This document shows, one piece after another, positions 1 to 43,421 of a stretch of 64,000 nt of DNA (positions within the stretch are counted from its first letter, which is position 1; the number at the start of each line of letters is the position of its first letter). The stretch covers positions 7,502 through 71,501 of the forward strand of contig CANRDL010000001.1 of NCBI GenBank assembly GCA_947629405.1, written 5' to 3'. Under the pieces are notes generated by a model. That model was given only the letters and a program-made list of their open reading frames with translations, made no database searches and was not told where the DNA came from. The stretch is from an uncultured Bacilli bacterium (GTDB lineage Bacteria > Bacillota_I > Bacilli_A > RF39 > UBA660). Made by a program: the position numbers and the translations under genes.

Positions 1-3000
1 CCCTGAAGAACATTTTACGATGAATGAAGATAATTTAATGGATATGGTAAATCAGCTGGGCAATGAAGAAAAGATTTTAAAAAATGTGCCAATATGTTTT
101 TCATTTATTAAAAGTTATATAACTGCTATGGTAGGAAAAAAGAAATATTGTGATGTTTTACTTCAAAATATAATATTACAACTTATTACATTTCACAGTT
201 ATGATAATTTAAAAATTGTCTTATTTACAAATAAAGAAAACTTATGGAAATATGAATATTTAAAAATATTACCTCATGCTTTTTCTGATGATAAACAAAT
301 TCGTTTTATAGCAGCATCAACCGATGAATATAAAGAAATTTGTTATAATTTGGAAAGAGTTTTACAAAAAAGAAAAGAAGAAAAAAATGATGCTATTTTA
401 TATAATCAACATTATTTAATAATAACGGACTCTTTTAAACAAATAAGGAATTTTGACTTTATTAAAAATTTATTGGAATTAAAAAAATATTATGGTTTTT
501 CAACTTTAATTATTAATGATAAATTAACTTCTTTACCAGATACTTGTCAGTCTTTTATTAATATCGGTGAACAGAATTGTGAAATATTATCAAATGAAAC
601 ATTAAATAATCGAAGAAAATTTGTAATTGATTTTAATAAAAGATATGATTTATATAAATTATCTAAAATTCTTGCTAATATTCCTATTGAATTTAATAAT
701 AATTCCGATGGAAAAATTCCCGACAAACTTGGTTTTTTAGAAATGTTTGATGTTGGTAAAGTAGAACAATTAAACATTTTAAATAGATGGAAGAAAAATT
801 CGCCAATGATGTCTTTGCAAGCACCAGTAGGTGTTGGTAAAAGTGGGGAAATTATTAGTCTTGATTTACATGAAAAATATCATGGACCTCACGGTTTAAT
901 AGCAGGTACGACAGGATCTGGTAAATCAGAATTTATTATAACTTATATTTTATCAATGGCTGTAAATTATCATCCCTATGAGGTTTCTTTTATATTAATT
1001 GATTACAAAGGTGGTGGACTAGCAGGAGCCTTTGAAAATAGTGGATTGAAATTACCTCATTTAGTAGGAACAATTACTAACTTAGAAGAAAATGAAATAA
1101 ACAGAAGTTTAGCATCAATTGAAAGTGAACTTAAAAGAAGACAAATATTATTTAATAAAGCGCGAGAAATATCTGGCGAAAGTACTATTGATATTTATAA
1201 GTATCAACAAATGTTTAGAGAAAAAGTTGTTGAAGAACCAATTTCTCATTTGTTTATTATTTCAGATGAATTTGCCGAATTAAAAAATCAACATCCGGAA
1301 TTTATGGAACAATTAATTCAAACTGCTCGAATAGGTCGTTCTTTAGGAGTTCATTTAATTTTAGCAACTCAAAAGCCTAGTGGAGTTGTCGATCCCCAAA
1401 TTTGGAGTAACACTCGTTTTAGAGTTTGTTTAAAAGTATCAGATAAATCAGATAGTAATGAAGTAATACAATGTTCTGATGCAGCTTATTTAAAACAAAC
1501 TGGTAGATTTTATCTTCAAGTTGGTTTAAATGAGATTTATGTTTTAGGACAATCTGCTTATACGGGTGGACAATATATTCCATCTGATAAAATTAAAAAA
1601 ACTATTGATTCTTCCATATTATTTATTGATAACATTGGTTATGTTAAAAAGAAAGTTGATACAGTAAAGAAAAATGTTAATCAAACGACAAATGGTGAAG
1701 AATTAATTAATGTTTTAAAATATTTAAATGAAGTTGCTAAACATGAAAATATTAATGTAAAACCTTTATGGTTACCAAAAATGCCTAGTAATATTAGAAT
1801 TGAAGAATTACAAGCAAAATATAATTACCAAAAAGAGAACTTTATATTAAATCCAATTGTCGGTGAATATGATGTACCTGATGAACAAAAACAATGTTTA
1901 CTAACTGTTCCGTTTTCCAAAGAAGGTAATGTTTTAATTTATGGTGCAGCTCAGTCAGGTAAAGAAAATTTTATTATGACTACTATTTATTCTTCAATGT
2001 TATATTATGATGCTAGTGAAGTTAATTATTATATTTTTGATTTTGGAGCGGAAATCTTAAAATGTTTTGAAAATTCTCCACTTGTTGGTGATATTATATA
2101 TGTAAACGACGAAGAAAAAATAAAAAACACCTTTAATATGATACAAAAAGCAATAAATGAAAGAAGAAAGTTATTTGCTCCATATGGTGGTAGTTATTAT
2201 AATTATTTAAAAAATACTAATCAAAAGATACCAGCAATTGTAATTATTATTAATGGCTATGATGCCTTTTATGAAACATATGAATCTTATGATGAAGATC
2301 TTTCAATGCTTGCAAGAGATTGTACTAAATATGGCATATATTTAATGATTACAACTATAAGTCCTAATGGAATTAGATTTAAATTAAAACAAAATTTTTC
2401 AAATATATATTGTTTACAACAAAATGATAGTGATGATTATTCATCAATTTTAGGTAATGTTAAAAATAAATTACCTGCTAAAATTTTTGGAAGAGGAATA
2501 ATAAAGTTAAATGATATTTATGAATTTCAAACTGCTTTAATAACTGAAAAAGATAATATTGTTCCATATGTAATTCAAAAATGTACTGAATTAAATAATA
2601 CTAGCACAATTAAAGCACCAAAAATACCAATACTTCCTGAAAAAGTTACTAATCAGGATATTATCCAAGAATTTAATAAAAATAATGAAGTTATCATTGG
2701 AATTGATAAAAATGATTTAGAAATTATTAAATATAATTTTATAAAAGAAAATATTAATATAATTACTACTAATGATGTTTCTTTAATTGAACCATTCATA
2801 AATCCATTTGTAAATCAAATTTTAGCTATGAATTACTCTAATGTTATATTAATTAATGCTGAGGAAATTTCATTAGATGATAACTTTAAAAAATATTACA
2901 AATATTATGATAATAATTTTAATAATATTTTTAATGATATATCTCAATATATTAAATCTAGTTATGAAAATTATAAAAGTAATGATTTTAATAAAGAAAT

Positions 3001-3370
3001 ATTTAAAGATGTTAAAAAAACTTTGTGCATAATTGTTGGTATAAAATCATTTTACAATAAATTAAGTGACGAAAATCAAAATAATTTTTCGAGTCTTTTT
3101 GAAAACATTTCTGACTTAGACATAATAAATTATATATTTATTGATAACATTGATAATATAAAATATTATGAATCAGAATCATGGTTTAAATCATCATGTA
3201 ATACTAATAATGGTATTTGGATTGGAAATGGGCTTGATGATCAATATACTTTAAAAATTTCAAAAAGAACTTCTGATGTAAAAAAAGAAGTAGCAAGTAG
3301 TTTTTGCTTTGTAGTAAAAAAAGGTATACCAATATTAGTTAAGTTTGTAGAAAAATTTGATATAAAATAA
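1..3370 (+). CDS. essC: Type VII secretion system FtsK/SpoIIIE-family ATPase EssC (YukB-like), 5'-partial; frame is open from the window edge
   Basis: Reading frame open from nt 2. Walker A motif GTTGSGKSEF plus degenerate second and third P-loops (AAQSGKENF, etc.) is typical of the three-ATPase-domain EssC C-terminus. The fragment is 1116+ aa and the N-terminal FHA/TM part is missing. Confidence 0.8.
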   Translation, partial: PEEHFTMNEDNLMDMVNQLGNEEKILKNVPICFSFIKSYITAMVGKKKYCDVLLQNIILQLITFHSYDNLKIVLFTNKENLWKYEYLKILPHAFSDDKQIRFIAASTDEYKEICYNLERVLQKRKEEKNDAILYNQHYLIITDSFKQIRNFDFIKNLLELKKYYGFSTLIINDKLTSLPDTCQSFINIGEQNCEILSNETLNNRRKFVIDFNKRYDLYKLSKILANIPIEFNNNSDGKIPDKLGFLEMFDVGKVEQLNILNRWKKNSPMMSLQAPVGVGKSGEIISLDLHEKYHGPHGLIAGTTGSGKSEFIITYILSMAVNYHPYEVSFILIDYKGGGLAGAFENSGLKLPHLVGTITNLEENEINRSLASIESELKRRQILFNKAREISGESTIDIYKYQQMFREKVVEEPISHLFIISDEFAELKNQHPEFMEQLIQTARIGRSLGVHLILATQKPSGVVDPQIWSNTRFRVCLKVSDKSDSNEVIQCSDAAYLKQTGRFYLQVGLNEIYVLGQSAYTGGQYIPSDKIKKTIDSSILFIDNIGYVKKKVDTVKKNVNQTTNGEELINVLKYLNEVAKHENINVKPLWLPKMPSNIRIEELQAKYNYQKENFILNPIVGEYDVPDEQKQCLLTVPFSKEGNVLIYGAAQSGKENFIMTTIYSSMLYYDASEVNYYIFDFGAEILKCFENSPLVGDIIYVNDEEKIKNTFNMIQKAINERRKLFAPYGGSYYNYLKNTNQKIPAIVIIINGYDAFYETYESYDEDLSMLARDCTKYGIYLMITTISPNGIRFKLKQNFSNIYCLQQNDSDDYSSILGNVKNKLPAKIFGRGIIKLNDIYEFQTALITEKDNIVPYVIQKCTELNNTSTIKAPKIPILPEKVTNQDIIQEFNKNNEVIIGIDKNDLEIIKYNFIKENINIITTNDVSLIEPFINPFVNQILAMNYSNVILINAEEISLDDNFKKYYKYYDNNFNNIFNDISQYIKSSYENYKSNDFNKEIFKDVKKTLCIIVGIKSFYNKLSDENQNNFSSLFENISDLDIINYIFIDNIDNIKYYESESWFKSSCNTNNGIWIGNGLDDQYTLKISKRTSDVKKEVASSFCFVVKKGIPILVKFVEKFDIK

Positions 3371-35289: not shown

Positions 35290-35364
35290 AGAGTAAATAA
35301 AATTATTGGCAAATAATTTAAGTTATGTTATAATGATTTTATAAAAAAAGGCCATGATTAAGAA

Positions 35365-35560
35365 GTAGTAATAAGAGATTTATTTAAAGAGAGTCTATGG
35401 TTGGTGGAAATAGATAATAATATCTTATGAATTCGTCTTAGGAGCTTTATAAACAAAATTTATAACGGTGACGCGTTATAGTCATTAAGGTGTATATTTA
35501 TATACATAAATTAAGGTGGTACCACGTAGACACACGTCCTTATAGGATGTGTTTTTTTAA
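35365..35560 (+). promoter_or_regulatory. T-box riboswitch leader (Phe specifier UUC) with terminator
   Basis: aaagagagtctatggttggtggaaa stem-I element, specifier region atgaaUUCgtc, T-box sequence aaattaaggtggtaccacg, and terminator acacacgtcc...ggatgtgt followed by TTTTTTT. Confidence 0.8.
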
Positions 35561-35579: not shown

Positions 35580-36623
35580 ATGGATAATTTAGAAAATATT
35601 TTAAGTGAGTTAGAAAAACAAATAGCTGATGTAAAAAATATTAATGAAGTAAATAATTTAAAAATTGAATATTTAGGAAAAAAAGGTAAAATAGGAAGTT
35701 TATCTTCCATAATCAAAACTTTACCAGTAGAAGAGAAAAAAGAATTTGGTAAAAAATTAAACGATTTAAAAATGAAAGCTACGGATATAATTAATGAAAA
35801 AGAAAATAAAATTAATGAAGATATCCTAAATGATAAATTGAAAAATGAAAGTATTGATATAACTTTACCAGCTACTAAAATTCCTATGGGTGTTTCTAAC
35901 ATACTAGAAAGAATTGTGGAAGAAATAGAAGAACTTTTAATTTCTATGGGATATGATGTAGTTGATGGTCCTGAAATTGAAGAAGATAAATATAATTTTG
36001 AACTTTTAAATATTCCTAAAGGACATCCAGCAAGAGATGCTCAAGATACTTTTTATATAAAAGATGAAGAAATACTTTTGCGTAGTCAAACATCTCCTGT
36101 TCAGGCTCGGGTAATGCTTGAAAATGAAGGGAAAAATCCTATAAGAATGATTTGTCCAGGTAAAACTTATCGAAGAGATGACGATGATGCTACTCATTCT
36201 CATCAATTTATGCAAATAGAAGGATTACTTGTTGATAAAGATATTTCATTATCTGATTTAAAAGGTACAATTGATGAAATAGTAAAAAAATTATTTGGTG
36301 AAGATTGTGTAACTCGTTTTAGACCAAGTTATTATCAGTTTACAGAACCATCTGTTGAAGTAGATATTAGTTGTTTTAAATGTAAGGGAAGTGGCTGCAA
36401 TATCTGTAAAAATACCGGTTGGATTACAGTAGCTGGTGCGGGAATAGTTCATCCTAATGTTTTAAAAAATTGTGGTTATGATCCTAATGTTTGGTCAGGA
36501 TTTGCTTTTGGTTTTGGAGCAGAAAGACTTGCTATGCTTAAATATGGAATTAATGATATTAGAGCATTTTATACTACCGATTTAAGAGAACTTGAAAGAT
36601 TTTCAAGAAAGGATAGTGAATAA
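35580..36623 (+). CDS. pheS: Phenylalanine--tRNA ligase alpha subunit
   Basis: Class II motifs (FRPSYYQFTEPS, GAGIVHPNVL). RBS AAGGAGG. Confidence 0.93.
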   Translation: MDNLENILSELEKQIADVKNINEVNNLKIEYLGKKGKIGSLSSIIKTLPVEEKKEFGKKLNDLKMKATDIINEKENKINEDILNDKLKNESIDITLPATKIPMGVSNILERIVEEIEELLISMGYDVVDGPEIEEDKYNFELLNIPKGHPARDAQDTFYIKDEEILLRSQTSPVQARVMLENEGKNPIRMICPGKTYRRDDDDATHSHQFMQIEGLLVDKDISLSDLKGTIDEIVKKLFGEDCVTRFRPSYYQFTEPSVEVDISCFKCKGSGCNICKNTGWITVAGAGIVHPNVLKNCGYDPNVWSGFAFGFGAERLAMLKYGINDIRAFYTTDLRELERFSRKDSE

Positions 36624-36624
36624 T

Positions 36625-38997
36625 ATGATTAGTTTAGAATGGGTAAAAGATTATATTGATATTGAAAATGAAGATTTAAAAGAATTAGCTGTAAAAATTA
36701 CGAAAGCGGGAATTAATGTTGAAAAAGTTATCTCTAATCATATTAATAATTTAGTTATTGGTAAAGTTTTAGAGTGTGTGCCGCATCCAGATTCTGATCA
36801 TTTAAATGTTTGTAAAGTAGATGTGGGTAATGAAATATTACAAATTGTCTGTGGTGCTCCTAATGTTCGAAAAGATTTAAAAGTTATTGTTTCAAGAGTA
36901 GGAGCAATACTTCCTGGCGATTTTGAAATCAAAAAAAGCGTAATAAGAGGAGTAGAATCAAATGGTATGATGTGTGCCTTATACGAATTAGGTTTAGAAG
37001 AAAAAACGGAAGAAACTTATCGTAAAGGAATTCATGAATTAGATAATGATGCTCCAATTGGTGTTGATCCTTTAAAATATTTAGGTTTAGATAATACTTT
37101 ATATGAATTGGATATTCATAAGCATCGTAATAATGATTGTTATTATCATATTGGTTTTGCTTATGAAATTGGCGCAATTATTAATAAGAAAGTAAAATTA
37201 CCAGATGATTCTTATACTGAAATTTCTGATTCAATTAAAGATCATTTTAAATTACAAGTTAATACTTCAAAATGTCCTTATTTTTTAGCTAAAATGGTAA
37301 AAAATATAACTATAAAAGAATCTCCTGATTTTATTAAAAAAAGATTAATTGCTGCTGGAATGCGACCAATTAATAATGTTGTAGATATTTCCAATTATGT
37401 TATGTTGGAATATGGTCAACCAACTCATTTTTATGATTTTGATAAAATTGGTGATCATTTAATTGTTAGAGATGCCAAAGAAAATGAAAAAATTATAACT
37501 TTAGATGAAAAAGAAAGAATTTTATCAAAAGACGATATTGTAATTGCTAATGATAAAGAAGCATTATGTATTGCTGGAGTTATGGGTGGTTTAAATTCCG
37601 AAGTTACTGATGATACTAAAAATATTTTAATTGAAAGTGCTATATTTGAGGCTACTTCTATTAGATACACTTCAACTAAACTTAACTTAAAAAGTGAAGC
37701 ATCTATTAGATACAGCAAAGGTTTAAATTATGAATATACAAAAAAAGCTATTAATAGGGCTTGTCATTTATTAGAAAAATATGCTGATGCTACTATTTTA
37801 TCTGATATTGTTTCTTATGATGATGTCGATAAAACTAAAAAAATTGTAAAATTTAAAGCTGAAGAAATAAATAAAATGTTAGGAATTAAAATAAATAATG
37901 ATGATATTAAATTAGAACTTAATAGATTAGATTTTAAATTTAATTTTAAAAATGATGTATTTGAAGTCGAAATACCAAATAGAAGATTAGATATTGATCC
38001 AAATATTAATGATATTGCTGAAGAAATTGGCAGATTATATGGTTATCATAATTTAAAATCAACATTACCTAAAACAGAAATAAGAAAAGGTAAATATGTC
38101 GGTGATGTTAAATTTAGAAAGATGATTTCTAAAAGATTAAGATCCCTTGGTTTAAATGAATGTAAAACTTATACTTTAACATCTCCTGAAATGGCAAGTA
38201 AGTTTCGATATGATGATAAGAAAAATATTGTTTTAAATAAACCTATGAGTGTAGATAAATCAGTTATTAGAACTACTTTGATTCCTTCATTATTAAATGT
38301 TTTTGAATATAATAAAACAAGAAAAGTAGACGATGTACTTATTTATGAAATAAGTAAAACTTATGATGATGCTTACAATGAAGATACTAAAATTGCTATA
38401 TTAATGCAAGGTAATTATCTAATAAATAAATGGCAAAATACTAAAATCGCTGTTGATTTTTACTTAATAAAAGGAATAGTGGAGGATTTATTAAATTATT
38501 TAGGACTTGCAAATAGATATTCATTTGAAGTTGGTAATATTACTGATTTACATCCAGGTATTAGTGCTGAAATTATTTTAGATAAAGAAAAAATAGGTAT
38601 TATAGGAAGAGTTCATCCTAAACTTAAAAAAGATAATATTTTTGTCGTTGAACTTTCAATGAATAAATTAATGAAAAATATTAAACCAATAAAATACATT
38701 GAAGCATCAAAATATCCAGAAATAAAAAAAGATTTAGCATTTATTGTTAAAAAAGATGTCCAATCTAAAGATATCATGACGCAAATAAAGAAATCTGGTG
38801 GAAGATTACTTACTAATATTGATATCTTTGATGTTTATGTAGGTGAAAATATTGCATCAGATGAAAAATCAATTGCTTATTCTCTTACTTTTAATGATCC
38901 GACAAGAACTTTATCTGATGATGAAGTAATGGAAGTATTTAATAAAATTATTAAAGATGTAGAAGAAAAATGTAAAGCTAAACTTCGCGATAAATAA
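36625..38997 (+). CDS. pheT: Phenylalanine--tRNA ligase beta subunit
   Basis: Start MISLEWVKDYIDI immediately after the pheS stop. tRNA-binding, B3/B4 and B5 domains are present. The track's 36592 start is a TTG read-through. Confidence 0.92.
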   Translation: MISLEWVKDYIDIENEDLKELAVKITKAGINVEKVISNHINNLVIGKVLECVPHPDSDHLNVCKVDVGNEILQIVCGAPNVRKDLKVIVSRVGAILPGDFEIKKSVIRGVESNGMMCALYELGLEEKTEETYRKGIHELDNDAPIGVDPLKYLGLDNTLYELDIHKHRNNDCYYHIGFAYEIGAIINKKVKLPDDSYTEISDSIKDHFKLQVNTSKCPYFLAKMVKNITIKESPDFIKKRLIAAGMRPINNVVDISNYVMLEYGQPTHFYDFDKIGDHLIVRDAKENEKIITLDEKERILSKDDIVIANDKEALCIAGVMGGLNSEVTDDTKNILIESAIFEATSIRYTSTKLNLKSEASIRYSKGLNYEYTKKAINRACHLLEKYADATILSDIVSYDDVDKTKKIVKFKAEEINKMLGIKINNDDIKLELNRLDFKFNFKNDVFEVEIPNRRLDIDPNINDIAEEIGRLYGYHNLKSTLPKTEIRKGKYVGDVKFRKMISKRLRSLGLNECKTYTLTSPEMASKFRYDDKKNIVLNKPMSVDKSVIRTTLIPSLLNVFEYNKTRKVDDVLIYEISKTYDDAYNEDTKIAILMQGNYLINKWQNTKIAVDFYLIKGIVEDLLNYLGLANRYSFEVGNITDLHPGISAEIILDKEKIGIIGRVHPKLKKDNIFVVELSMNKLMKNIKPIKYIEASKYPEIKKDLAFIVKKDVQSKDIMTQIKKSGGRLLTNIDIFDVYVGENIASDEKSIAYSLTFNDPTRTLSDDEVMEVFNKIIKDVEEKCKAKLRDK

Positions 38998-39152
38998 AAT
39001 TTTTTATTAAACTTTGTAGTTAAATGAAAGAATAATTTAAAAACTTGGTTTTAGAAATATTTTGGCAAACCAATTAAATGTGTAATTTGACAAAATTATA
39101 AACAAAATCTTAATTTTATGTTATAATGAAAATATAGAATAGGATGTGTTTT

Positions 39153-39929
39153 ATGAAAGATGTTAATTTACTAATAAATAATAATGTTAATGTTAAAAAA
39201 AGTTTAGAAATATTTGAAAACATGCAAACCTATGATGAAATTTTATTAGAATTTTTAAATACTGTTGATGATAAAATTTCTAAAATAAAAACTTATAAAG
39301 AAATAGGGGATATGGCAAATTATGCTATTCAATCTCATTCTTTAAAAAGTGATGCTCGTACTTTTGGATTTGAAAAACTTGCTGAAATTGCTTATCAACA
39401 TGAAATGGCTGGTAAAGCAAATGATATTTATTTTGTTACAGAACATTTTGACGAATTTATGAAAGAAGCAATGTTTATTTCTAACTTAGTAAAACAATAT
39501 TTTGGTAAAACACCTGTAACAGTTTCTAATAATCAAACACAAGTTAATAATATAACTAATAATACAATCTTAGTAGTTGATGACTCTACTATAATAGTTT
39601 CCTATATTGAAAAAATGTTAGGTAAAGAATATAATGTAAAAATAGCTAATGATGGTGAAGAAGCTTTAAATATTATAAAAAATGATTCTGATAATATTGT
39701 AGCTATGTTACTTGATTTAAATATGCCTAATGTTGATGGTTATCAAGTACTTGAATATTTTAAAGAAACTAATTTATTTAAGAAAATACCTGTTGCAATT
39801 ATTACGGGAGAAGATTCTAAAGATTCAATTAATAAAGTATTTAAATATCCAATTACTGATGTTTTAGCAAAACCGTTTAATGAATCTAGAATTAAAGAAA
39901 TAATAAATAAGATGTTAAATTTTAAATAA
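39153..39929 (+). CDS. Hpt-domain plus CheY-like receiver (REC) domain phosphorelay protein; no cognate kinase adjacent
   Basis: Hpt motif HSLKSDARTFGF. REC with LVVDDS, phospho-acceptor LLDLNMP and K in LAKPF. Confidence 0.7.
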   Translation: MKDVNLLINNNVNVKKSLEIFENMQTYDEILLEFLNTVDDKISKIKTYKEIGDMANYAIQSHSLKSDARTFGFEKLAEIAYQHEMAGKANDIYFVTEHFDEFMKEAMFISNLVKQYFGKTPVTVSNNQTQVNNITNNTILVVDDSTIIVSYIEKMLGKEYNVKIANDGEEALNIIKNDSDNIVAMLLDLNMPNVDGYQVLEYFKETNLFKKIPVAIITGEDSKDSINKVFKYPITDVLAKPFNESRIKEIINKMLNFK

Positions 39930-39936
39930 TAAAAAT

Positions 39937-39961
39937 AAAGCATTAATTGCTTTATTTTTTT
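39937..39961. terminator. Bidirectional terminator between the Hpt-REC gene and the convergent sigma gene
   Basis: aaagcattaattgcttt hairpin followed by a T-run. Confidence 0.55.
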
Positions 39962-40022
39962 AATATTTAGAAATATTTAAAAAAGATATTAAAATTAGTC
40001 AATTATAATAGAGTAGGAAAAA

Positions 40023-43000
40023 TTAAGCTACTTTTTGTAATTTTACTTCTTTTAATTTTTTATATTCTGAAATTATTAATTTCATAGCTTGCAATCTAAT
40101 TTTTTCGACATCATGTTTAGTTAAATTATAAAATTTAGCAATTTTTGTAATATTAAATCCACATAGATAAAGTATAATAATCCTATATTGATTACCTGTC
40201 AATTTATTTTTCATTACATCAAGTATTTTTTGAGATTCTTCTTTACACTCATCTAGCAAACTTTCATTAAACCATATTAGTGTTAAAGTTAATGCTTTTT
40301 CTTCATAATAATAAATAAGGGTATCTAACATCTTTAATAAACTATTTTTAGAATTACAATTTTTTTCAATTGCATCAATTGTATCATTTTTAAAAAAATT
40401 AATTTGATCTAATCTTTTTACTTGTTCTATTGATAAATTATTATTAGTATAGCGGTCATTTTGATCTTTTAACCATCCATTTAATTCGATAATTTTATTA
40501 TTAGAAGTATCTTTTGTAATATTTAAATTTCCATTATTATTATAATATTTTTGCGCTGTATTATAATTTTTTTCCCATAAACGTAAATCCCATATCATAC
40601 CAATTTGTTCCAACTTATAAATTCTATTTTTACTTAATTTATTTTGTTTATATAAATATCTTTGTAATTTAATCCATTGTCCTAATTTTACTCCATTTAT
40701 TATGTAATTATTAGGGATTAATAAATTTCCATTTTTTCTATAATAATCTTGAGCTAATTTAAATTTTTCATTCCATTTATCTTCTTGAAAACGGGTAGTA
40801 TTGTTATTATATTTATGTCTATTTGCTTGTTCTTTAGTTAATACCCAAACCATTCCTATTTTATTTAATTTTTCAATTCTTCTTTCACTTAGTTGATTTT
40901 TTCTATATAATTTTCTTTGTCTGAATATCCAATAACCTAATTTAATTCCATTAACTTCATAACCGTAAGGAACTAATAAATTTTTATGTTCTTTATAATA
41001 ATTTTGAGCTAATTTATATTTTTCATTCCATTGTTCTTCCAATATATTTATTTTTGGTTTCTTTTTATTTTTTCTATTATATTGCTCTTTAGGTACTACC
41101 CAAACCATTTTTATTTTATTTAATTTATCAATTTTTTCTTTACTTAATAAGTTTTTTCTATAGTATTGTCTTTGTCTTACTATCCAATAACCTAAATTTA
41201 CTTCATTTACTACATAATTTTTAGGAATTAATAAATTTTTATGTTCTTTGTAATACTCTTCAGCTAGTTTATATTTTTCATTCCATTGTTCTTCTATTTT
41301 ATTTATTTTTGGTTTCTTTTTATGATTTCTATAATATAGCTCTCTAGGTACTACCCAAACCATTTTTATTTTATTTAATTTATCAATTTTTTCTTTACTT
41401 AATAAGTTTTTTATATAGAATCGTCTTTGATTAGAAATCCATTGTCCTAAATTTATGCCATTAACTACATAACTATAAGGAATTAATAAATCTTTGTGCT
41501 CTTTGTAATACTCTTCAGCTAATTTATATTTTTCTTCCCACATTTTTTGTAATTTTGGATTTTTTCTTTTGTGGTGACTATTTCTATTATATAGTTCTTT
41601 TGGTACTACCCAAACCATTTTTATTTTATTTAATTTATTAATTCTTTCTTCGCTTAATTTATTGTTTTTGTAATTTTGTCTTTGCAATGCTATCCAATTA
41701 CCTAAATTAACTCCATGAATTACATAACTTTTAGGTATTAATAAATTTTTATGTTTATTATAATACTCTTCGGCTAATTTATATTTTTCATTCCATTTGT
41801 CTTCAAGAGAAACTCTAACTTTTTTACTATCTTTATTAATATTATTATTTTGAGTATGACTAATTATTGGTGTTTTAGATTGTGTTATATTGTTTGCTAA
41901 TTTAATATCCAATTCATCTTTTAATTTTTTTAGCATTTGATATATTCTTTGTTGTTCATTTTGAGATGGATTTTCTATACTAAATAAACTATATTCTTCT
42001 TCATTAAAAAGTGCTATTACTTCCTTACTAACCATTTTTTTATCATAGTTTGTATATTTTAAAAAATTTCGAAGATTTTTAAATATATTTTCATCTTTTG
42101 TATTTTGTTGATTCATTTTTTCAGTTTTCAAATAGTTATTATTTGAAAAATTTTTAAGTTTTCTTAAAGCTTTAGCTTCTATTTGTCGTATACGTTCACG
42201 AGTAACATTAAATTTTTTTCCTACTTCTTCTAAAGAACGCTTTATACCATCTTTTAATCCAAAACGTAATTCTATAACAGTTTTTTCGTTTTCATTTAAA
42301 TATTGTATTGCTTCTTTTATTTGAGATATAAGAAGAGAATTAGTAGCATATTCTTCTGGATTAATAGTATTTTTATCTTCTATAAACATTTTTAAATCAG
42401 CATCATTGTCATCTCCAACTGGATTTTCTAATGACACTGTATTTTGACTAATTTCTATTATATTATTAATATAAGAAATGCTTTTATTGGCTTTTTTAGC
42501 AATTTCTTCTATTGTTGGTTCACGATTGAGTTCAATAATTAATTGTTTTTTTAAAGAAGCTATTTTTTCTATACTTTTAATTTTATTAGTTGGTATACGA
42601 ATTGTTCGCGCTTGTTTTTGTAATGCACTTGTTATAGCTTGTCTTATCCACCAAGTAGCATATGTGGAGAATTTAAATCCTTTGGTATAATCAAATTTAT
42701 CTATTGCTTTTATTAATCCAGCATTACCTTCTTGAACTAAATCTAGAAAGGATAAACCACGATTTCTATATTTTTTAGCAATAGATACAACTAATCGTAA
42801 ATTTGCTTCAGAAAATTTTTTTCGCGCAATTTTGTTTCCTTCCGCTATTTGTTTTGCTAATATTTGTTCTTCTTCTAAAGTTAATAAAGGTATACGACTT
42901 ATTTCCTGTAAATATATCTTTTCTGGATCATATTGATCAAAATTTATTTCTTCTATTTCTTCTTTCTCTTCAATATCAATATTATTAATTGAACAATAAA

Positions 43001-43274
43001 CTTCTAGTAAAGATATTGCAAAGTCATTATTAAATATTTTCTCTAATTCATTTTTTTTAATAAAATCTATATTTTTATCTACAACTATTTTTAAGATATT
43101 ATTTAATTTAGTATTATAAGTTAATAGGGATATTATACTTTCAATATCTTGCAATGAATTTTCAAATTTCAAACAAAATTCTATAAAAAACCTATAACTA
43201 TGTTTATAATCTAATGGTTCCACTAAGTTTTCATTAAAAAATTCAGTTATTTTTTGAAAATCATTTACTTTCAT
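40023..43274 (-). CDS. RpoD-like sigma-70 factor (regions 1.2 to 4.2) fused to seven HA (helicase-associated)-type repeats and a second C-terminal sigma region-4-like HTH
   Basis: Region 1.2 [21 protein letters not shown]. Region 2 [50 protein letters not shown]. Region 4.2 [24 protein letters not shown]. Then 7 repeats [47 protein letters not shown]. The C-terminus [43 protein letters not shown] is an HTH. Confidence 0.75.
40390..41810 (-). repeat. In-frame ~258-nt tandem direct repeats (5 to 7 copies) encoding the HA-type modules
   Basis: Near-identical blocks such as ccaaaccatttttattttatttaatttatcaattttttctttacttaataagtttttt recur at ~41100, ~41350 and ~41600. Confidence 0.85.
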
Positions 43275-43421
43275 AATAATCCCTTATTTCATATATTTTA
43301 ATTTCTTTAGAAATCCATTAAAATATCAACATATTATAACAGATTATTTTAATATTGCCAATTTTTTGTCAAATTATGGTTTTATTAAATTTTCAAATAA
43401 AAAAATAAAGAATTAATTGTT

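Follow-up and report, generated by a model that had tools for sequence, protein, structure and literature searches.

C-terminal extensions occur in several sigma factors, among them the ECF41 (SnoaL-like), ECF42 (TPR), CorE-type and SigI proteins, and in these a single sensory or regulatory domain on a group 4 (ECF) or SigI-type sigma presumably modulates activity or targeting. A non-sigma extension of another kind is carried by MzaA of the MZA anti-phage system (NF041931, PADLOC PDLC02203), a 726-aa sigma-70 protein in which the extension is N-terminal and is not built from helicase associated (HA) domains. The HA domain itself (Pfam PF03457) has a tandem habit, as in BVU_0683 and the many HA-repeat proteins of gut Firmicutes, the homologues carrying 5-13 copies each, and the architectures known for it comprise helicase domains (PF00270, PF00271, PF04851), nucleases (PLD, DUF559-like), TniQ or HA domains alone. 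Here we describe a gene in a 64,000-nucleotide stretch of DNA from an uncultured Bacilli bacterium (the whole stretch is termed the window throughout) in which a tandem array of this same domain family is instead joined to an RpoD-like sigma factor, and which we refer to as the sigma-HA gene. In contrast to the ECF41, ECF42, CorE-type and SigI proteins, the window protein combines a full RpoD-like sigma with an HA repeat array and a region-4-like helix-turn-helix (HTH), and its array, unlike the extension of MzaA, is C-terminal. Regions 1.2, 2, 3 and 4 are common to the window protein and the group 1 and group 2 sigma-70 proteins (RpoD/SigA and their paralogues), relative to which it has about 700 extra C-terminal residues and no Pfam match to region 1.1 (PF03979). 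Full-text searches of the literature for a sigma factor together with an HA domain returned nothing relevant. We consider it probable that the element is an HA array of six copies, fused in frame to an RpoD-like sigma, subject to occasional conversion between units and serving as a putative DNA tether.

From the N- to the C-terminus, the protein consists of an acidic N-terminal domain, an RpoD-like sigma-70 (regions 1.2-4), a linker, six HA domains and a tail resembling sigma region 4 (Table 1), and it is identical to an NCBI protein (P0374) encoded on a 135.8-kb contig. This sigma-HA-HTH fusion is the notable feature of the locus; an earlier reading made from the letters and open reading frames (ORFs) alone (the sequence-only reading) had reported an in-frame repeat inside a sigma gene and recognised neither the fusion nor the HA identity of the repeat. 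The Pfam HA model matches six stretches of the protein at 327.7 bits, against a gathering cutoff of 28.4, and the conserved HA pattern W...LG.W...QR...L...IGM.W is present. Each 85-residue unit is assembled from a 63-residue HA core and a 22-residue basic linker, the linkers following units 1-4. In an AlphaFold2 (AF2) model of units 2-4 built from a 72-sequence alignment, the mean predicted local distance difference test score (pLDDT) was 91.1, with values of 95-98 in the cores and three helices per unit, and the HA core is modelled as a compact three-helix fold of about 65 residues. The 22-residue linkers are probably flexible, as their low pLDDT of 54-68 and a predicted template modelling score (pTM) of 0.45 give the units the look of independent beads on flexible strings. 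Among solved structures, the sequence comes closest to PDB 2KTA, which bears the annotation 'Putative helicase', with a weak match (E=0.004); a Foldseek search with the three-unit AF2 model gave no meaningful match and did not recover 2KTA, probably because the orientation of the units relative to each other is arbitrary in the model. The array carries a net charge of +54, with an isoelectric point (pI) of 9.9, and is under purifying selection between strains, with 0.0225 non-synonymous (dN) and 0.0815 synonymous (dS) substitutions per site. The first HA-domain structure to be determined was that of Bacteroides vulgatus BVU_0683 (Mills et al. 2013, reference 64 of PMC12191111), and according to the title of that paper, as listed in PMC12191111, the structure 'indicates domain binding to DNA'.

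The sigma core matches the Pfam families PF00140, PF04542, PF04539 and PF04545 (Sigma70_r1_2, r2, r3 and r4), is 50-57% identical to Firmicute RpoD proteins and has visible canonical region 2.4 and 4.2 motifs. The place of region 1.1 is taken by the acidic N-terminal domain (net charge -13, pI 4.4), which belongs to a different sequence family, is 38% identical to the N-terminus of the related fusion P0198 and is matched in two further fusions, P0238 and P0240, as well. At the opposite end of the protein, residues ~1011-1082 of the tail fold into an HTH in a single-sequence AF2 model (pLDDT 60-87). This model returned weak Foldseek E-values of 0.2-1, with sigma region 4 accounting for most of the small-domain matches, and the matches 3vfz, 2h27, 6onu, 3hug and 3vep superimpose with a root-mean-square deviation of 1.3-3.3 A over about 60 residues. 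By sequence, the tail gave a sub-threshold match to positions 104-161 of the NCBIfam sigma70-ECF model (E=0.007; 16 bits, where the cutoff is 42.9), no BLASTP alignment to the protein's own region 4 and, in Pfam, a sub-threshold HamA match only. Judged from the model, the tail looks like sigma region 4 or a LuxR-type HTH. Membership in a defence system was considered and rejected, as the NCBIfam MzaA model scores 272.9 bits against a cutoff of 800, the PADLOC match to MzaA is confined to the sigma core of the window protein, and no defence genes lie nearby.

Table 1. Positions in the window of the sigma-HA gene, its parts and the upstream promoter-like sites
Feature	Position	Strand	Extent and remarks	Basis
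Whole gene: RpoD-like sigma, C-terminal HA-domain array, HTH-like tail	40023..43274	-	1083 aa	ORF and Pfam
C-terminal domain	40026..40388	-	121 residues (aa 963-1083), last ~70 aa HTH-like	
HA unit 6	40389..40577	-	aa 900-962, degenerate	
HA unit 5	40578..40775	-	aa 834-899, without a long linker after it	
HA unit 4	40776..41030	-	aa 749-833	
HA unit 3	41031..41285	-	aa 664-748, includes the conversion tract that is polymorphic among strains, 41083-41163 (gene nt 2112-2192)	
HA unit 2	41286..41540	-	aa 579-663, matches the unit-3 conversion tract at 41338-41418	
HA unit 1	41541..41795	-	aa 494-578, 63-aa HA core and 22-aa basic linker	
Linker joining sigma region 4 to HA unit 1	41796..42119	-	aa 386-493	no family match
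Sigma-70 core	42120..42920	-	aa 119-385, regions 1.2, 2, 3 and 4	Pfam, all above cutoff
Acidic N-terminal domain	42921..43274	-	aa 1-118, restricted to this sigma subfamily	
Two overlapping sigma-70-type promoter-like sites, ftsW-sigma intergenic region	43333..43372	-	TTGACA-18-AATAAT and TTGGCA-17-(TG)TATAAT, 11/12 each	consensus matches only

In the mechanism that we propose, the array would have grown by tandem duplication of an 85-codon unit, and its internal units would be gained, lost and homogenised lineage by lineage while the end unit stays. Through the basic HA array and the tail, the holoenzyme would gain contacts with DNA beyond the -10 and -35 elements that are polyvalent and largely electrostatic, and these could hold RNA polymerase to the DNA or direct it where, at a genomic GC content of 24%, -10-like hexamers abound, with array length setting avidity or reach. 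An alternative that we judge unlikely is that the array is a protein-protein or RNA-binding scaffold, or else an autoinhibitory, anti-sigma-like appendage that regulates the sigma core in cis together with the tail. Sigma region 4, which the tail resembles, is a frequent target of anti-sigma factors and activators, the acidic N-terminal domain and the basic array could interact intramolecularly, and HA-only proteins encoded beside sigma-HA genes on three contigs described below (L022, L006 and L028) suggest HA-HA partnerships. However, HA domains recur on enzymes that act on DNA (helicase domains, nucleases and the Tn7 target selector TniQ), which fits nucleic-acid binding, the title of the HA nuclear magnetic resonance paper reports binding to DNA, and the AF2 model, at a pTM of 0.45, shows no fixed packing between the domains.

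The repeat itself is tandem, in frame and located within a minus-strand gene of the sigma-70 family, just where the sequence-only reading had placed it, as two programs agree. Tandem Repeats Finder reported positions 40713-41804 with a period of 255, 4.3 copies, 80% matches and a score of 1189, and a repeat finder resolved five copies spaced by exactly 255 nt. These five units are in frame, and a sixth, degenerate unit follows them. The period is thus 255 nt (85 codons) rather than the ~258 nt first claimed, and unit borders were set after translation by anchoring on the conserved tryptophan. The description of the units as nearly identical did not survive pairwise alignment, by which they share 70-87% nucleotide and 50-78% amino acid identity (units 2 and 3 form the best pair, at 87.1% nucleotide identity) and differ at a Nei-Gojobori dS of between 0.21 (units 2 and 3) and 0.79. 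Set against a whole-gene dS between strains of 0.057, these values indicate that, compared with the strains, the units diverged long ago. The long shared stretches that had been pointed out at ~41100, ~41350 and ~41600 are nonetheless real, as units 2 and 3 share an exact run of 68 nt (41345-41412 = 41090-41157), the longest exact repeat within the window gene, and unit 1 shares an exact run of 37 nt with both of them (41602-41638).

Most of the between-unit similarity at the nucleotide level derives from strong AT codon bias, with occasional gene conversion adding to it. Two-fold degenerate codons are used one way in ~86-88% of cases across 37 long ORFs of the window, and with usage this one-sided the same residue is encoded by the same codon by chance ~65-70% of the time. 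An excess of same codons over this expectation is found for units 2 and 3 (56 observed vs 43.6 expected, z=3.9), for units 1 and 4 (z=3.4) and for units 3 and 4 (z=2.9), whereas codon bias suffices for the other seven unit pairs; the suggestion that the units are more conserved than protein constraint requires thus holds for three pairs and fails for seven. An overlapping structured RNA was also considered as a source of nucleotide conservation and was rejected, as Rfam finds no RNA family in the repeat region.

The conversion signal is concentrated in an 81-nt tract of unit 3, for which we compared the window with alleles of the same gene on contigs L001, L005 and L024. Between the window and L001 there are 82 differences, of which 13-14 (depending on the alignment) fall within the tract, where about 2 would be expected (Poisson P~4e-8). 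In the window and L005 the tract copies unit 2, with exact runs between units 2 and 3 of 68 and 85 nt, respectively, and in L001 and L024 it differs at 13-15 sites and the longest exact run between the two units is 17 nt. The 30 informative sites of the gene as a whole group the window with L024 and L001 with L005, and the 12 informative sites of the tract contradict this by grouping the window with L005 and L001 with L024. Clustered differences together with this discordant grouping indicate that at least one conversion event between repeats made one of the two haplotypes, after which either conversion recurred or allelic recombination spread the haplotype. The proposal of ongoing homogenisation by recombination in the sequence-only reading is upheld in this respect, with the tract copying unit 2 in some strains only.

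Copy number behaves differently from what that reading had anticipated, namely change between strains. A search of 5.8 billion protein clusters recovered full-length relatives in only three 90%-identity clusters, at 95-96% identity, and seven distinct alleles were collected from at least eight samples across three sources (ENA assemblies, Logan and NCBI): that of the window (P0374), P0001, P0002, P0003, P0373, P0375 and a split allele represented by P0372 and P0371. All seven contain six units at a gene-wide nucleotide divergence of ~2.5%, and no 5- or 7-unit form came up in the search of the 5.8 billion clusters. As far as these few alleles show, the number of units is constant at six within the species, and invariance across strains is an outcome that the sequence-only reading had itself named as refuting its proposal. 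Scans of the GTDB r232 representatives and of JGI metagenome contigs with the HA array and tail as query returned HA-only proteins only, at 26-38% identity, and thus no near relative of the species in either collection.

We therefore find it quite improbable that the array is a contingency-like module whose copy number varies at the level of strains through slippage or unequal recombination, as first proposed. The raw material for such a module is present, as neighbouring units are identical over 68 nt in the window and over 85 nt in L005, exchange between units has occurred in the unit-3 tract, homologues range from 2 to 20 copies, and a segmental duplication with a 262-nt exact repeat is seen in the relative L006. 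Against it stand the invariant count of six, recovered from several samples and assemblers, the lack of any length variant among the protein clusters searched, a unit identity and dS far from the near-identity of true contingency repeats, and a 255-nt period that exceeds what polymerase slippage allows. That the true array is longer or more uniform and was collapsed or mis-joined by short-read assemblers, a risk that the sequence-only reading had raised, is very improbable. In its favour is the general behaviour of assemblers on tandem repeats, and the sequences come from metagenome assemblies, apart from one NCBI contig whose type is not stated. Against it, divergence between the units is 13-30%, several ENA SPAdes contigs from different samples, Logan contigs and the NCBI contig independently agree on gene length and keep the unit-specific differences, the longest exact repeat is 68 nt, and the frame is intact over 1083 codons.

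The split allele (L024 1452-4662, L025 and L026) is set apart by a 38-nt deletion in the linker that precedes the array (gene nt 1394-1431, window 41844-41881), which shifts the frame and leaves a 466-aa sigma without HA domains and a separate HA ORF of 553 aa. The split allele also lacks 3 nt in linker 3.

Beyond the species, 1.84 billion representative proteins were searched exhaustively without a profile, and subsequent Pfam scans identified further sigma-HA fusions, which stem from several unrelated metagenome studies: P0238 (2157 aa, 20 HA domains), P0198 (923 aa, 7), P0240 (731 aa, 3), P0250 (932 aa, 3), P0283 (707 aa, 2) and P0288 (735 aa, 2). By these sequences, copy number is highly variable over evolutionary time, and the expectation of copy-number change is borne out over these longer distances, with 2, 2, 3, 3, 7 and 20 HA domains in related fusions, paralogues as well as orthologues. 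Internal HA units find their closest match within their own protein, and the last, degenerate units find theirs in other proteins, as illustrated by unit 7 of P0198 and unit 20 of P0238 (60% identical) and by unit 6 of the window protein, which matches the last units of P0198 and P0238 best and is 42% identical to unit 7 of P0198 vs 35% to its best match within its own protein. Such a pattern is typical of arrays in which the interior turns over and the edge is conserved. A tail motif is likewise common to P0238, P0240, P0250 and the third ORF of L006.

Several relatives place HA proteins beside the fusion gene. On L006 (8001-12307; 21.8% GC, from a spore-former-like relative), the sigma-HA7 gene that encodes P0198 is followed by two HA ORFs, both starting LKKTRNDLWNEKYKIAKKYY; one of the HA ORFs duplicates the 3' end of the sigma gene (the 262-nt exact repeat) and the other ends in an HTH-like tail, an arrangement suggestive of a recent segmental duplication by which the architecture came to be spread over three ORFs. 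L022 (4267-16639) encodes a sigma of 568 aa, then sigma-HA20, then a 17-HA protein, and L028 (3461-9910) encodes, after dnaK-dnaJ, HA, sigma-HA2, HA and sigma-HA2 in that order. Among the 120 best HA homologues, a sigma partner was found in only one. The best HA-only homologues, P0121-P0124 (10-13 HA domains), contain an embedded segment of ~150 aa with weak matches to DUF559 and PvuRts1I-like (Vsr-type endonuclease) families, suggesting HA arrays that flank a nuclease.

Returning to the overall reading of the element, an HA array fused to the sigma factor, subject to conversion between units and serving as a putative DNA tether, several points weigh against it. The evidence for DNA binding by HA domains is the title, as listed, of one structural-genomics paper. 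The high pI of the array is partly a proteome-wide effect of AT-rich genomes. The sigma-4-like assignment of the tail comes from a model built on one sequence, for which the Foldseek E-values are weak. The discordant tract may owe its pattern to gene conversion or to allelic recombination among strains, and the two are not fully separable there. Finally, the split allele implies either that the fusion is dispensable or that this allele is a pseudogene. A bolder proposal, which we offer tentatively and regard as doubtful, is that sigma-HA fusions may be RpoD-like sigma factors of a class not yet described, belonging to uncultured Firmicutes of very high AT content. In these, a rapidly evolving array of 2-20 HA domains and a second, region-4-like HTH would direct the polymerase to features of the DNA other than the -10 and -35 elements, and selectivity for promoters or chromosome regions would be retuned among paralogues and lineages by array length and conversion.

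Whether the sigma-HA gene encodes the housekeeping sigma factor or a paralogue can be approached through its scores, its context and its relatives. The window sigma reaches none of the NCBIfam RpoD equivalog cutoffs, with best scores of 362.9 bits against 572 for NF006666 (PRK09210) and 312.3 against 354 for TIGR02393. The fusion P0240, in which a homologous N-terminal domain and a sigma core are followed by three HA domains and a tail of the type seen in the window protein, is encoded after recA at L023 4769-8196 (ERZ27249118, NODE_580, 219x), and the gene immediately upstream of it encodes a further RpoD-like sigma, of 388 aa. The contig with allele P0002 derives from the same sample, ERZ27249118, and has a coverage of 217.6x vs 219x; given the same sample and the same coverage, P0240 and P0002 very probably belong to one genome as paralogues. 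No RpoD cutoff is passed by the window sigma, by P0240 or by its 388-aa neighbour. In Firmicutes the principal sigma is encoded in a dnaG-sigA operon. Sub-cutoff RpoD scores, the lack of an adjacent dnaG and the probable paralogue in the same genome lead us to favour, from sequence comparisons, an alternative RpoD-like paralogue as more likely than the housekeeping sigma.

The window is otherwise ordinary Firmicute chromosome with a GC content of 23.8%, in which the sigma-HA gene is flanked by ftsW/mraY and a response-regulator gene, with pheT further away, and in which EssC, PolA, ThrS, TypA, PriA, ComEC and PBP1A are also encoded. No second sigma or HA gene was found within the 64 kb. In the ftsW-sigma intergenic region the total number of promoter-like matches is not above that of shuffled controls, and no terminator-like site was found around the sigma-HA gene. 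The response-regulator gene (261 aa, 39144-39929, plus strand) is a convergent neighbour of the sigma-HA gene, and the N-terminal half of its product resembles an Hpt phosphotransfer domain, to judge by eye from an HSLKSDARTFG motif; for the 258-aa gene at the equivalent position of L001, precomputed Pfam gives Response_reg only. On L001 (9359-13752), a hybrid histidine kinase, an acyltransferase and a 322-aa gene lie between the response regulator and pheT, compared with the corresponding 38997-40023 of the window. The shorter contigs L002-L005 have at least the kinase beside the sigma-HA gene as well, and the window and L024 are without the kinase, the acyltransferase and the 322-aa gene, so that strains differ by an insertion or deletion beside the sigma gene. 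Elsewhere in the window, a T-box leader (Rfam RF00230, 120.5 bits) is located at 35345-35544 on the plus strand upstream of an ORF at 35580-36623, which lies directly 5' of pheT and is probably pheS, and a Firmicute-type type VII secretion ATPase, EssC, is encoded at the window start (20-3370, plus strand; TIGR03928, 904 bits, above cutoff).

Viewed as a copy-number-variable repeat, the element is mostly ordinary: a known domain array with stable copy number, in which similarity between the units is largely codon bias. Its interest would lie in the fusion, for which ready-made comparisons for functional tests exist in the conversion tract, polymorphic among strains, and in the split allele. 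Should the array truly tether RNA polymerase, the poorly understood HA domain would gain a testable function, and the sigma-HA proteins would represent a new way to add promoter or locus specificity, one whose importance would be greatest in genomes with an AT content high enough to make -10-like hexamers ubiquitous.

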